A stretch of DNA of 39,449 bases, taken from the IMG/VR virus record IMGVR_UViG_3300046490_000092, positions 1 through 39,449 of that record. One strand, given 5' to 3'. Shown here piece after piece: positions 13,856-38,971 of this stretch. The notes beneath the pieces are model-generated. The model did not search any database and was not told where the DNA came from. It saw only the letters and a program-made list of their open reading frames with translations. The DNA comes from a virus. Its lineage: Duplodnaviria; Caudoviricetes. Position numbers and translations under genes: made by a program. How positions within the stretch are numbered: the stretch's first letter is position 1; each line of letters starts with the position of its first letter.

Positions 13856-14740
13856 GTGAAGCCCATCAGACTGCAGCCAGATCTAACCCGGGTGCGCCCG
13901 GTTGCGGGCAGCGGGACAGGTATGATACGCTGTGGCTTCTGCGTCAGCGGGTCGTGCGATCAGTGCCCGGGAGGAATCGAGCACCGTGGTGGCATGATTT
14001 GGAAGTGCGGATGCACCAAGCACCCGCTCGTGCTGCGGTGCTTGTCGTGTGGCAGCCAAGACCCCGCGCTGGTAGACTCCGAGAAGTATCACTGCACCGA
14101 TAGCAAGGCATGCAAGGCCAGAGCAACAGAGCGTACCGAATCCAATCCAGCAGTTCGACACATCCGGGAGATACAGATGGCCACTGAGACGGCCGAGATC
14201 AAGGCCCCCAAGGCGCGTGCACCGAAGGTCGGGTACTGCGTCCACTGCAACGAGCCCACGAAGGGTGGCAAGTTCGTCGCCGGTCACGACGCCAAGTGGG
14301 TGTCCGAGCACGTCGTCGCCGTCATGAACGGCCAGGTCGAGGAGAAGGCCGCCCGCGCCAAGCTCGTCCAGATGGGAAGCGACGCGCTCGGCAACAAGTT
14401 CGACAAGTCGCTGGCCAGCCAGCGTGGCAAGGCCGAGTCGAAGCGTCTCGCCAAGGAGGAGAGCGAGGCGAACGCGCTCGCCGCCAACGAGGCCGCTGCA
14501 CTCGACGAGAAGCGCCAGTCGCTGAAGCCGGAGCCGGTCCTCGGCAGGGTCGGTTCCGAAGACGAGAACGGCTTCGAGTCCGAGGACGACGAGGACATCG
14601 AGCTGGAGGAGGACGAGGAGGACGAGGACGGGCCGGAGCCGGAGCCCGCGCCCAAGCCCGTCGTGCGTCGGACCCGCCTCGGTGGTGCCAAGACGGCGGA
14701 TGCCAAGCCCACCGTGCGCCGCCGATCGACCGCGAACTGA
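13856..14740 (+). CDS. Cys-rich protein with CxxC-F-x-x-GHDAK module, acidic tract and basic tail; likely internal start at 14177
   Basis: RBS GAGGAG before GTG 13856; second RBS CCGGGAGATA before ATG 14177, where GC3 rises sharply. Confidence 0.75.
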   Translation: MKPIRLQPDLTRVRPVAGSGTGMIRCGFCVSGSCDQCPGGIEHRGGMIWKCGCTKHPLVLRCLSCGSQDPALVDSEKYHCTDSKACKARATERTESNPAVRHIREIQMATETAEIKAPKARAPKVGYCVHCNEPTKGGKFVAGHDAKWVSEHVVAVMNGQVEEKAARAKLVQMGSDALGNKFDKSLASQRGKAESKRLAKEESEANALAANEAAALDEKRQSLKPEPVLGRVGSEDENGFESEDDEDIELEEDEEDEDGPEPEPAPKPVVRRTRLGGAKTADAKPTVRRRSTAN

Positions 14741-14744
14741 TCAC

Positions 14745-14848
14745 AGGGGCGCTCCGGGCAGTGCACCCAACATCGACCCCGGAGCAGTGAAGCACGCCAG
14801 GAAGACGACGCGGGCCGCCCTCGCGTTGCGCTGCTGGTCGTCGCCCCT
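14745..14848 (+). ncRNA. putative structured RNA (three-way junction) directly upstream of the tRNA-like gene
   Basis: AGGGGC/GCCCCT closing stem, GCTCCGGG/CCCGGAGC hairpin, third arm CCAG/CTGG plus CGACGCG/CGCGTTG. Confidence 0.4.
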
Positions 14849-14854
14849 ACCCAA

Positions 14855-14955
14855 GGCGTTGAGGTGCTACGGCAGCACATCCAGGTTCGATCGCCAGCTC
14901 GCCGCCCGAGCGGGGCGCAACTGGATCGTAGAGGGTTCAATTCCCTTCGACGCCA
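14855..14955 (+). tRNA. tRNA-like RNA with a 29-nt insertion in the anticodon loop (nominal anticodon TCG, Arg)
   Basis: Acceptor GGCGTTG/CGACGCC-A, D-stem GTGC/GCAC with GG in the loop, anticodon stem TCCAG/CTGGA, T-arm GAGGG-TTCAATT-CCCTT; no encoded CCA. Confidence 0.75.
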
Positions 14956-15014
14956 CTCCCACCCGGACCTCGTGGGTGCAGTAAAATCCCCTACTCTCTG
15001 ACCGAAGGACAGTC

Positions 15015-15446
15015 ATGCGCAAAAAGTTCCTGGCGGCCCTCGCGATGCTGTTGCTCCCACTGTTCGTCTTCTCCGGGACTGCGCAGGCCAAGGAGCAGGA
15101 CAGCTACTATTGGTCCGGCTGGTTCAATTGCCCGTTCACCGACGGACATGTCGAGTCGGTCCACTGGATGTTCGACAACGATGGAGTCGAGCGCCGGGTT
15201 GCGGAATTCGGATGGAGCGGCACGCTGCTGATCAACACGTTCGCCATTCGCGAGGTGCGCACGGACACGGGAGCGCAGCAGGGTGGTATCTACCACCAGA
15301 GCGGTTACCCGGGTGTGGCGAACTACCAGACCGGTGACCTGGGCAGTACGTTGCCATTCATCTGGAACACCACCCCGGCGCGGCTGTACATCACGCTGTC
15401 AAAGGACAGCGGGAGCACGACCGCATCCTGCTACCACGACATCTGA
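15015..15446 (+). CDS. secreted protein (Sec signal peptide)
   Basis: MRKKFLAALAMLLLPLFVFSGTAQA|KEQ with an AxA cleavage site; beta-rich mature part with two Cys. Confidence 0.8.
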   Translation: MRKKFLAALAMLLLPLFVFSGTAQAKEQDSYYWSGWFNCPFTDGHVESVHWMFDNDGVERRVAEFGWSGTLLINTFAIREVRTDTGAQQGGIYHQSGYPGVANYQTGDLGSTLPFIWNTTPARLYITLSKDSGSTTASCYHDI

Positions 15447-15748: not shown

Positions 15749-15760
15749 CCTGAGATACAA

Positions 15761-15807
15761 CGAGACCCCCGACCTGAGGCGCTGGATACCTCAGATCGGG
15801 GGTCTCG
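15761..15807. terminator. bidirectional terminator at the convergence of rightward and late transcripts
   Basis: CGAGACCCCCGA-CCTGAGG ... CCTCAG-A-TCGGGGGTCTCG long stem between convergent genes. Confidence 0.8.
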
Positions 15808-15833
15808 CTATGTCCCTGATGCCGGGAGGCCCA

Positions 15834-26480: not shown

Positions 26481-28193
26481 TCACTTGCGGACGATGCCGG
26501 TCAAGCATCCGTTCCAGGCAGCCGCGTAGCAGAGGAACGTCCCGTACCAGTAGGACGATGCCTCGTACGCGAGCTGGAGCACTGGCCACTCCAGGCTCAT
26601 GTAGTCCTGGACGTTGAAGGCCTTCCAGACGTCCGAAACCTCGGAGTTCTGGAGCGGAAGTTGCCAGGAGATGATCGGGCTGATGCCCTGCGGGATCCAG
26701 GGGTGAACGGTGAAGTCCACCATCTTGCCCGTGACCTCGTTCTGCAGCCCAGTGACCACGGCACCGATGGTCGCACTGTGCTCCTGCTCGATGGTGATGC
26801 GGTACGAGCTGGAGTTGCTGTTGAGCTTGATGAGGTCCGACATCTGCTTGCGGTCGCCGCCGTAGAGGAAGATCTCGTCGGGATCGGCCTTGACGCTGTC
26901 GTACAGCGAGACGAACACCTGGTTGTAGTCGTCGCCCGGGTTGGACGAGAACGTACTGCCCAGGTGCCGGACGTAGCCCGCCTGCGACGGGTTGGAGCAG
27001 ATGGTGAGCAGGCCGTCGTAGTCCAGCGCGCTGGAGTCGGTCGCCGAGGCGGGCGGGTTGGAGCCCGCGATCGGCGCGCCGCCAGTGCCACCACCGGTGA
27101 AGTTGATGGTCACCGCACCAGCAGTACCGGACGCCACGACCAGCGTGCCGATGCCGTTGCCGAACTTGGCGGCTTGAATGCCAGAGGCACCGGCTGCGAT
27201 CGTCAGGTCCGCGGTCCAGACGGAAGCCGCCGCGTTGACGGTACCGGCGTAGACCTTGTACTGCTGCGCACCCGTGACCAGGGTGGTGAGCTGGACGTCC
27301 ACGACCTTGCCGGTCGCGGCGCTCATGCCCGTGGTGTTCGCCGAGCCCGCGACCGTCTCGCCGAAGGCGGTGGCCGCCGTGACGTAGACGTACAACGTCG
27401 CGATGTTCGCGGTGTTGCCGGTCTCACCTGTGGTGGCGTTCCGAACGGTGAGGGTCGGCGTACCGGGGGTGGTGAGCGCGCCAGCGAACCCGGCCGCGGT
27501 ACCGCGACCACCGAGCAAGAGGCGCTCCTCCATCAGGAGCGAGGACCACAGCAGTGCGGAACGGTCGGTCGCCCGGATGTCCTGGAACCCCTGACCGGAG
27601 AACTGCGCCGAGAAGGGAACCGAGCTGGACAGACCGAACTGCAGGTAGGGCACACTGGCCTCGTCACCCGCGTACGAGATCTTCGCACCACGGATGAAGT
27701 TGAGCGAGCCGAATGTGGTAGTGGTCGAGTCGGTCAGGCCGGGTCGGATGTTGCCGACACCGCCGGTACCGGTACCGGTGTGACCGGTGATCCTCTTGTA
27801 CCGGTGCGCCGTGCCGACACCCCTGCCACGCGGGATCCGATTGCGGAGCGGCGTGAGACGCGGGGCCAGCAGCTTGGCCGGAGCCTCCAGGTCGTAGGCC
27901 ACGTAGCCAGTCGACAGCGGCGAAGTCAGCGTCAGGTCCTTGACGACGTCGGCCGTCATGCCCATCGCCGCGCCGATCGACTCCAGGACGTCGGCGGACA
28001 CCGACTTGGAGAGGGTCTGGAGAGCGGCGGTCTTCGGGTCGATGTTCTGGGCCGCCAGCCCGCCGCGCATCTCGGCGAACTTCTGGGTGATGTCGGTCGG
28101 AGCATCCATGAGGGTCTGGAACGACTTGTAGCGGTCCGCGCGATCCTCGGCAGTCGAGGCGTCAGCGAACATCTCCTTGGTGTTGATTGCCAT
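26481..28193 (-). CDS. major capsid protein (570 aa) with an internal Ig/FN3-like insertion
   Basis: Follows the protease/scaffold; very high GC3; LEAPAKLL..TPLRNRIPR, VHPWIPQG and YGTFLCYA motifs. Confidence 0.88.
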   Translation of the reverse strand: MAINTKEMFADASTAEDRADRYKSFQTLMDAPTDITQKFAEMRGGLAAQNIDPKTAALQTLSKSVSADVLESIGAAMGMTADVVKDLTLTSPLSTGYVAYDLEAPAKLLAPRLTPLRNRIPRGRGVGTAHRYKRITGHTGTGTGGVGNIRPGLTDSTTTTFGSLNFIRGAKISYAGDEASVPYLQFGLSSSVPFSAQFSGQGFQDIRATDRSALLWSSLLMEERLLLGGRGTAAGFAGALTTPGTPTLTVRNATTGETGNTANIATLYVYVTAATAFGETVAGSANTTGMSAATGKVVDVQLTTLVTGAQQYKVYAGTVNAAASVWTADLTIAAGASGIQAAKFGNGIGTLVVASGTAGAVTINFTGGGTGGAPIAGSNPPASATDSSALDYDGLLTICSNPSQAGYVRHLGSTFSSNPGDDYNQVFVSLYDSVKADPDEIFLYGGDRKQMSDLIKLNSNSSSYRITIEQEHSATIGAVVTGLQNEVTGKMVDFTVHPWIPQGISPIISWQLPLQNSEVSDVWKAFNVQDYMSLEWPVLQLAYEASSYWYGTFLCYAAAWNGCLTGIVRK

Positions 28194-38249: not shown

Positions 38250-38279
38250 AGAGTAGCAGGCAGAGAGAATGATTGGCAA
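38250..38279 (-). promoter_or_regulatory. promoter TTGCCA-N18-(TG)-TACTCT, leaderless
   Basis: ATG 38243 lies 6 nt below the -10; no SD. Confidence 0.65.
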
Positions 38280-38391
38280 GCGACTTGACTGTGAGGCAAT
38301 ATTTGGAATGTCAATATGGATTCCGTAAGAGAAAAAAGCCGCTTCGATATATATGTATATATGCACCGTCACAACAAGTTGTGCACGACCT

Positions 38392-38419
38392 TGTTAAGAG
38401 CAGGTCACCGCTCTTAACA
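38392..38419. repeat. operator-like inverted repeat TGTTAAGAGC-N8-GCTCTTAACA
   Basis: Perfect 10-bp arms just upstream of a -35 box. Confidence 0.7.
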
Positions 38420-38428
38420 CGAGGGGGC

Positions 38429-38457
38429 TTGCCAACCGGGCACGACCATGGTAGACT
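38429..38457 (+). promoter_or_regulatory. early promoter TTGCCA-N17-(TG)-TAGACT
   Basis: Read directly; leader hairpin GGGGCGGG/CCCGCCCC and RBS GAGGGAG follow. Confidence 0.7.
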
Positions 38458-38509
38458 TTTTCTTATGGGGGGCGGGGCGGCCCGCCCCCACCAAGCGAGG
38501 GAGCCCACC

Positions 38510-38971
38510 ATGAACGCGAGCCAGACGACTGCCCCCGTTGCGACCACCCCCCGCTGTGAGTGCGGCCTGTGGGAGGACGCCGAGGGAATCTCCCTCACGG
38601 GGTGCAACCAAAACACCAGCACCAGCAAGAAGACCTTCCTGCCGGGGCACGACGCCAAGCTGAAGGGTGCCCTCATCAAGGCCAAGCACGCGGGGACCTC
38701 CGTGGTGCGGCCCGCCGACGGTGGGGACGTCCGGACGGAGATGTCTCCCGTGGATGCGGCCTCGCGCTTCGGTTTCGCGGCCATGGTCGCCAACGCGACC
38801 CCCCGCGCCAAGAAGGCCGCCGCGCCGGCCCCCGAGGGTATCGCGGAGGTCATCGCGCAGGCCGAGGCTGCGGAGATCGCGGCGGACGAGGCGAAGGCCG
38901 TGGAGGCGGTCCGGAAGGCCACCGCGCCCCGGCCGCGCCGGACCCGCAAGGCCGTCGCCGCCGGTAAGTGA
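38510..38971 (+). CDS. early protein with CxCG...FLPGHDAK module and Ala/Lys/Arg-rich tail
   Basis: Start moved to ATG 38510; very high GC3. Confidence 0.8.
   Translation: MNASQTTAPVATTPRCECGLWEDAEGISLTGCNQNTSTSKKTFLPGHDAKLKGALIKAKHAGTSVVRPADGGDVRTEMSPVDAASRFGFAAMVANATPRAKKAAAPAPEGIAEVIAQAEAAEIAADEAKAVEAVRKATAPRPRRTRKAVAAGK

Follow-up and report, generated by a model that had tools for sequence, protein, structure and literature searches.

The window analysed here spans an entire IMG/VR virus record (39,449 bases; 84% complete). Its genes include a siphovirus-like head and tail module as well as a replication module with a primase-polymerase, Sak4, a Cas4-like exonuclease and an SNF2 helicase. 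The replication module was matched in 147 isolate records (105 Arthrobacter, 18 Microbacterium, 16 Streptomyces, 6 Gordonia, 1 Curtobacterium and 1 Micrococcus), suggesting that the host is likely an actinobacterium. The probable capsid gene (26481-28193, minus strand) has isolate matches only in Thermoanaerobacterium, Brevundimonas and Alicyclobacillus phages; these differ from the actinophage-type replication module and the genome therefore appears to be mosaic. The two runs that cover the record best are peat metagenomes, one of them perhaps its source, while runs X3-X5, with small shares of the record, were left out of this habitat reading.

A tRNA-body RNA of 101 nt lies on the plus strand at 14855-14955, in intergenic DNA 114 nt past a PHROG 5477 gene (13856-14740, plus strand) and 59 nt ahead of a gene of 143 aa (15015-15446, plus strand). 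The upstream gene has no assigned function and encodes a Cys/His-rich protein that contains a C-x2-C...GHDA motif and ends in an acidic tail, and the downstream product has a signal-peptide-like N-terminus and no family; neither neighbour yielded a usable family in Atlas searches. A possible GC-rich hairpin just 5' of the RNA (14796-14843, plus strand) is weak, its folds being within chance (z -0.31 and -0.88), unlike the crisp hairpins of the isolates described below. On the 3' side, a weak -10-like hexamer, TAAAAT (14977-14982, plus strand), stands without a TTGACA-like -35, and the promoter scan called no site there. Further downstream, a long near-perfect hairpin between converging genes (15754-15814, z -4.9) is probably a two-way terminator, and the weak Rfam F6 match corresponds to this hairpin (15760-15808). 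A second GHDA-motif gene (38273-38971, plus strand) shows weak similarity (tblastn E about 1e-3) to gp56-gp58 of Korra, and no tRNA body was found beside it. Nor was any other tRNA or tRNA-like gene found in the 39-kb window.

The element combines a 7-bp acceptor stem with one U-G pair (14855-14861/14948-14954), a D stem (14864-14867/14875-14878), an anticodon-type stem (14880-14884/14921-14925) that closes a 36-nt loop (14885-14920), a variable loop of 5 nt, and a T arm (14931-14947, plus strand; GAGGG-UUCAAUU-CCCUU) in which a 5-bp stem (14931-14935/14943-14947) carries the loop UUCAAUU. Its acceptor/T branch is accordingly 7/5. Sequence, folds and descriptor agree with the full cloverleaf and the 36-nt anticodon loop that an earlier note on this DNA had described. 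All four stems pair without a mismatch, though the body is far from every sampled tRNA, and the pairing probability of the D stem is only about 0.3. The 3' part with the T arm (14931-14947) matches the 3' ends of phage tRNAs by blastn. The discriminator is A14955 and CCA is not encoded (the next bases are CTC); this absence, together with A8, U14, C20 and G32, reads as the earlier note had it.

In place of an ordinary anticodon arm stands an irregular rod (14880-14925, plus strand), composed of a 5-bp stem, a 7-nt/3-nt internal loop, 4-bp and 5-bp helices and a 5-nt apical loop. The insert had been claimed to fold on itself, and both inner helices are indeed predicted, CGCC/GGCG (14892-95/14914-17) with a pairing probability of about 0.75 and GCUCG/CGAGC (14897-901/14907-11) with 0.94-0.98. 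However, when the arm 14880-14925 is folded by itself, shuffled sequences do equally well (z -0.67; 45 of 200 as good), and hence the structure of the insert as such lies within chance.

The cloverleaf at 14855-14955 as a whole is genuine. Its descriptor score is 22, and a score of at least 20 was reached in none of 300 third-order Markov genomes (maximum 19.5); the fold of the whole element has a z of -2.58, with 2 of 200 shuffles as good. It is hardly conceivable that the element is a chance fold in GC-rich intergenic DNA, since no control genome attained a comparable score and the D arm is nearly letter-for-letter that of a natural tRNA class, even though neither default ARAGORN nor Rfam calls the element, as such an origin would predict. 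The check with the intron option of ARAGORN recovered the element, but only at a lowered threshold; it was called Gly(tcc), the intron being placed elsewhere, and this setting reported 34 matches in the window. Contigs from two other studies are identical to the window over 14598-14948 (X2) and 14888-15038 (X4); without any differences between them, the element is no assembly error. The one RNA run, X5, matches the window only over 14002-14159. An attachment-site relic was also considered and ruled out: both tRNA halves are present, and no integrase was found in the 57 of 235 ORFs scanned.

The extra sequence had been placed by the earlier note at the 37/38 intron position, where removal of 29 nt would leave the anticodon UCG. 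Such a cut is possible, but it is only one of eight 29-nt cuts, whose products have the anticodons CGC, UGC, UCC or UCG and G32 in every case. No cut gives a pyrimidine at 32 together with U33 and a purine at 37 in any of four stem registers. The anticodon-intron pair of tRNA introns joins position 32 to the third-last intron base; in the element G stands opposite G. The catalytic core of a group I intron takes a few hundred nt, and the 29-nt insert, which has no Rfam match, does not qualify as a group I tRNA intron. A20 is an identity element of tRNA-Arg, and a canonical tRNA-Arg(UCG) is contradicted by C20, by the 36-nt loop and by the lack of a call from default ARAGORN and RF00005. Archaeal and eukaryal tRNA intron splice sites are defined by a bulge-helix-bulge (BHB; PMC4090602, partial text), of which only 2 of 4 central pairs form at 37/38; the sole strict BHB sits inside the insert. 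The splicing endonuclease EndA (PF01974) and the ligase RtcB (PF01139) are absent from the 84%-complete record. Among 14 control genomes, PF01974 gave a signal in only the 4 archaeal ones, while RtcB was detected in 10, including Corynebacterium.

The idea of a tiny 37/38 intron is therefore not supported. In a variant of it, a nuclease would cut out the 29 nt and host RtcB would join the halves to tRNA-Arg(UCG), -Gly(UCC) or -Ala, as in a protein-spliced mini-intron of the Lak-megaphage type. The cut would restore tRNA length, RtcB is frequent in the controls, and Lak phage tRNAs have been reported with short introns (PMC6784885, partial text). We nevertheless consider this very improbable, given the incomplete BHB at the site and a strict one that would leave a 23-nt loop, the G32 of all products together with the missing A20, the lack of EndA and RtcB in the record, and DNA contigs in which no joint across the insert was seen. 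With its anticodon loop replaced by a 36-nt segment, the RNA is probably unspliced and non-decoding.

A8, G9 and the D arm (14862-14878, plus strand; G18 G19 C20 A21) are of the A8/U14 phage-tRNA type. Intact phage tRNAs of 71 nt with Gly, Trp, Pro and Lys specificities share the element's D arm, save for U13 in place of C13. A8/U14 was seen in 57 of 858 distinct tRNAs of the fetched loci, a set enriched by the search pattern, and A15/A48, as in the element, in 14 of 49 scorable A8/U14 tRNAs. As both combinations are found in natural phage tRNAs, the body is of a natural type and not decayed, and A8/U14 is not the oddity for which it had been taken. Intact 71-nt phage tRNAs with A8 and U14 are found at L130-L221 (e.g. 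L130, L133, L151 and L160), and several tRNA-Pro(UGG) among them have C33.

The unusual character of G32 was confirmed (3 of 858 phage tRNAs). It would be accounted for by the stretch at 14884-14890 (plus strand), where the anticodon loop would start, because this stretch is the T-loop consensus GGUUCGA. The same heptamer occupies tRNA positions 31-37 in none of the 858 phage tRNAs, which makes the "shielded UCG anticodon" of the earlier note doubtful, and CCAGG-UUCRA-NN-CCUGG occurs as a T arm in 12 of them. By its sequence, the rod may thus begin with a piece of a T arm rather than with an anticodon, and may have originated from such an arm.

Blastn searches with 2.1 kb and with the RNA against 50,697 phage records returned no relative; what they matched were tRNA fragments from the 3' T-arm region, along with chance sequences. 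One IMG/VR sequence pattern gave 3 matches, all in coding DNA, and another gave 0. The single-protein scan with the upstream gene yielded 0 loci; with the helicase as query, 6 loci emerged, of 23-28% identity. The homologs nearest to the upstream gene (P0002 and P0003, 69% and 48%) are encoded on Logan contigs, as are proteins at 57-62% to Sak4 (P0006-P0008). No element with a like insert was found by the single-sequence model R1 in 21 records, and uncultured records with an upstream-gene homolog contained no convincing element (0 of 9, with one weak match). Scans with D-arm patterns found other tRNA-body families, none with the element's rod. Hence no close homolog of the element was found, and the elements of its relatives seem to be analogues at other loci.

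Several of the tRNA-body families deserve a short description. One family from IMG/VR (L026, L038, L046, L084 and L100) has a short variable loop and a structured replacement of the anticodon arm; its architecture is the nearest to that of the element, and two-sided changes occur at 3 of 25 predicted pairs. A large phage family (L028, L029, L035, L041-L043, L051, L052, L071, L075, L076, L078, L081, L099 and others) is characterized by a long anticodon-arm rod with an AAA...CAGCA internal loop and by a paired variable arm, which is a T5 RNA1-like plan. The tRNA bodies at L027, L031, L032, L085, L090, L102, L110, L117 and L127 possess no clear anticodon stem, and their interior is conserved (AAGTCCGAG...GTAGGCA). 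Moreover, an apparent tRNA in a tRNA array of Klebsiella phage KP13-16 (L129:1458-1532) has no annotated feature.

The element could also be a recent relic, namely a genuine A8/U14 phage tRNA that acquired extra sequence in the anticodon loop, perhaps a T-arm piece, and is now inactive. Such an origin is suggested by an insert that is kept in no homolog and whose fold is within chance, and by the best natural tRNAs, mostly of the A8/U14 class, which match 38-40 of 65 body positions. We regard it as quite unlikely, because the four stems are free of mismatches although the body is far from the sampled tRNAs, and because bodies lacking an anticodon recur in related phages, where two-sided changes are seen.

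Since the single-sequence model matched intergenic DNA of Cicada and Parvaparticeps, the relatives were scanned for tRNA bodies, defined as an acceptor stem and a T arm around an unconstrained interior; the control gave 0.125 matches per 39-kb genome. Among 10 isolate genomes that share the replication module, scanned whole or nearly whole, 8 possess one or two such bodies (Korra, Cicada, Parvaparticeps, Sucha, Theresita, Ghobes, Keanu and Archimedes), and none was found in Olihed or Marky. These bodies keep the acceptor stem and the T arm (their 12-bp acceptor-plus-T length is partly built into the scan), whereas the anticodon arm ranges from long through short to missing. It is long and irregular in Korra (88 nt) and one Parvaparticeps body (95 nt), and reduced to a 2-3-bp stem with an 8-nt loop in Archimedes and the 67-nt body of Parvaparticeps; the interior is a tetraloop in Ghobes, a 10-nt loop in Keanu and a rod without a D arm in Sucha (85 nt). 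Jemerald and Mercedes have a branched insert, unannotated in 4 of 4 records. Clear hairpins lie 5' of the tRNA body in most isolates. Bodies of 67 nt in which a good D arm accompanies a contracted anticodon arm are present in Archimedes (L294:19881-19947), Parvaparticeps (L256:12099-12165) and an uncultured record (L327:11307-11373), each with CGCG in the loop. Across 18 elements, the discriminator is A in 16 and the next base C in 17, neither of which is demanded by the scan, though kin among them are not independent; the full CCA is encoded in 4. Default ARAGORN called 2 of the 18, and Rfam 1 as a tRNA in 10 loci.

The clearest case of a variable arm is found in Arthrobacter cluster AK, where a tRNA body stands between genes 57 and 56 (Korra L011:40324-40411, minus strand; L269-L274). 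A long form with an irregular arm (87-88 nt) is possessed by Korra and Suppi, 2 of the 7 genomes read, and a short form without an anticodon arm (50-51 nt) by the other 5 (Nancia, EstebanJulior, Albanese, Pumancara and HunterDalle); both stand between the same flanks. The T stems at this locus show two-sided changes at 2 pairs. A hairpin lies upstream of the AK elements and a promoter-like TTGAC stretch 5 nt downstream. The interval is matched by 105 Arthrobacter records, and 0 of the 45 listed carry any annotated feature at this place. Korra gene 57 and the PHROG-5477 gene upstream of the element share the Cys...GHDA motif; the PHROG-5477-like gene of Korra is gene 32, so that the link to gene 57 is at motif level only.

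Goodmanvirus has a mini-tRNA of 63 nt directly 3' of a RecA-like gene (Cicada L254:11429-11491; L259-L262), with C33 and a 7-nt UGG loop, which is annotated as tRNA-Pro in 7 of 17 records. A reading in which the Cicada element lacks an anticodon loop is contradicted by this 7-nt loop with UGG. Sucha has an extra pair in the stem of that mini-tRNA, with its second, 85-nt element straight after, and Keanu also carries an ordinary-looking 72-nt tRNA. The UGG loop of Goodmanvirus and the ordinary tRNA of Keanu indicate that some of these genes may decode. At 65 loci selected by a Sak4 profile, 5 convincing bodies were found 137-762 nt past the Sak4 match (control: 2 matches in 1.97 Mb); 58 of the 65 loci, many of them partial, are without an element. 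Three matches among the 8 at Sak4 loci (L348, L351 and L360 minus strand) were set aside as chance by their irregular folds, where the control expects about 1. In Mycobacterium phage Send513, an unannotated minimal acceptor-plus-T-loop hairpin is found between genes 48 and 49 (L275:385-424), and there are similar matches in Zenon, Riparian, Papyrus and JIND1.

Across these phages the acceptor-T stack and the T loop are kept and the decoding arm varies, which supports that branch of the earlier note in which the RNA is a tRNA mimic or a processing signal for RNase P or RNase Z. RNase P recognises its substrates by the T-stem/acceptor stack, to which it binds, with the elbow as its measuring point; in these substrates the D loop appears dispensable and the T loop needed (PMC4919913, partial text); a requirement for the acceptor and T arm is also evident from the available part of PMC4201824. 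Phage RNAs such as M3 and C4 are cut by this enzyme (PMC11143913, partial text). The element offers what an RNase P cut demands, its 7-bp acceptor, its T stem and its T loop all being intact. Because this stack is kept and RNase P binds such a stack, we prefer the reading in which the main role of the element is a signal for cutting by a host enzyme, through which the upstream message would end and a stable mimic would be released; we give it an even chance of being correct. Starting from the observed anatomy, the failed intron tests and the related-phage pattern, we infer the following course of transcription, cutting and CCA addition and the purpose they would serve. Transcription would place the element at the 3' end of the helicase/PHROG-5477 message, and host RNase P, measuring the acceptor-T stack from the elbow, would cut at 14855 and thereby create the 3' end of the upstream mRNA. 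Trimming of the 3' end and addition of CCA would yield a stable RNA of about 104 nt, parted from the downstream gene. The rod would prevent codon reading by the released RNA, which might have a second job as a decoy. Some features argue against the cut-signal reading: the complete D arm exceeds what RNase P needs, the apparent analogues lie at other loci with no homolog found, the 9 uncultured records and 58 of the 65 Sak4 loci are without a convincing body, some of the analogues may decode, and the predicted upstream hairpin is within chance.

The processed RNA may instead serve mainly as a stable decoy that soaks up host defences acting on tRNAs. It would lack a normal anticodon loop for the anticodon nucleases, and its most plausible targets are toxins acting at the acceptor or CCA end (toxSAS/FaRel and MenT types). 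Such toxins exist and some are anti-phage, according to sources available in part; the full D/T elbow is kept, the similarly shaped RNA1 and RNA2 of T5 are annotated as stable RNAs, and the part kept across relatives would be the part that these toxins bind. However, the element is present as a single copy in a small genome, and acceptor sequences differ freely among relatives, while FaRel2 selects particular acceptor stems (partial source). We therefore regard this as an unlikely main role, though one compatible with a cutting signal. More speculatively, small lytic actinophages (Korravirus, Goodmanvirus, Neferthenavirus, Ghobes/Archimedes, Parvaparticeps and the peat phage) may have in common a hitherto unrecognised class of anticodon-free "top-half" tRNA mimics, which would use RNase P/CCA punctuation in place of terminators and act as decoys against CCA-end toxins. 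Within such a class the element would come closest to a tRNA, with a captured T-loop module at the site of the former anticodon; this is a tentative proposal that we think has less than an even chance of holding.

None of our literature searches, with few subscription papers in scope, turned up a paper that describes these actinophage RNAs; some may be among the 10,006 candidate viral RNAs in the supplement of PMC10690425. In the accessible text of PMC5513430, only cluster AQ Arthrobacter phages encode tRNAs and cluster AK is described without tRNA genes, yet a tRNA body stands at one locus in 7 of 7 AK genomes read. Goodman and Johann are listed with 0 tRNAs (PMC7302621, partial text). The word "phage" is absent from PMC7609411, and PMC11662646, in its available part, deals with host tRNA fragments and has no bearing on the element. 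The tRNA-like RNAs of T5 are still of "unknown function" by annotation, and tRNA finders miss such genes. Cultured relatives with natural long and short forms, which grow on harmless laboratory hosts, make the role of an anticodon-less phage tRNA directly testable by deletion and swap. Should these RNAs prove to be RNase P signals, punctuation by tRNAs would reach the ends of phage mRNAs; as decoys, they would represent an RNA-only counter-defence.

Compared with known systems, the element belongs to neither the 37/38 introns nor the group I introns, the YrlA RNAs or the allo-tRNAs. Its 29 nt fall within the 11-129 nt of archaeal introns, with one of the possible cuts at 37/38 (PMC4090602, partial text), but unlike the archaeal and eukaryal introns it has no BHB at the site, no splicing endonuclease and a bacterial host. 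The "enigmatic" tRNA introns of Lak megaphages likewise add sequence to the anticodon loop (PMC6784885, partial text); in their case intron-bearing alleles could be aligned to intron-less ones, whereas the element has no known intron-less allele, and none of its cuts gives a canonical loop. Allo-tRNAs have an acceptor branch of 8/4 or 9/3 (PMC5389517, partial text), in contrast to 7/5 here. The Y RNA YrlA is, like the element, a mimic with a D arm, T arm and acceptor stem, and in M. smegmatis it is cut by RNase P and then gains CCA (PMC4201824, partial text). However, YrlA adjoins Ro60 according to the same source, while the free ends of the element lie in the acceptor stem, and the 84%-complete record contains no Ro60/TROVE gene and gave no Rfam match to the element.

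Two other systems resemble the element more closely. MALAT1 and Men-beta are eukaryotic long non-coding RNAs with a triple helix, and their mascRNA and menRNA share with the element a tRNA-like top half behind an upstream transcript, the lack of a usable anticodon and an unencoded CCA. The element differs from them in its phage origin, its position behind a protein gene, its full D arm and enlarged anticodon arm, and in that its cutting is only predicted, while mascRNA and menRNA are named as RNase P substrates (PMC4919913, partial text). The second system consists of RNA1 (T5s03) and RNA2 (T5s06) of phage T5, annotated as "tRNA-like stable RNA with unknown functions" (NC_005859.1). No sequence match between them and the element was found by blastn, and they differ in belonging to a large tRNA array and in having a predicted paired variable arm, whereas the element is a lone tRNA-like gene with a 5-nt variable loop. 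Nevertheless, all three RNAs are predicted to fold as cloverleaves whose acceptor and T arms are intact and whose anticodon loop gives way to a long irregular rod, and in none of them does a single cut produce a canonical loop. Moreover, the rod of T5 RNA2 holds a T-loop hairpin and that of the element contains a stretch of T-loop consensus. The element may therefore work like the RNA1/RNA2 kind, a kinship of predicted architecture and not of sequence.
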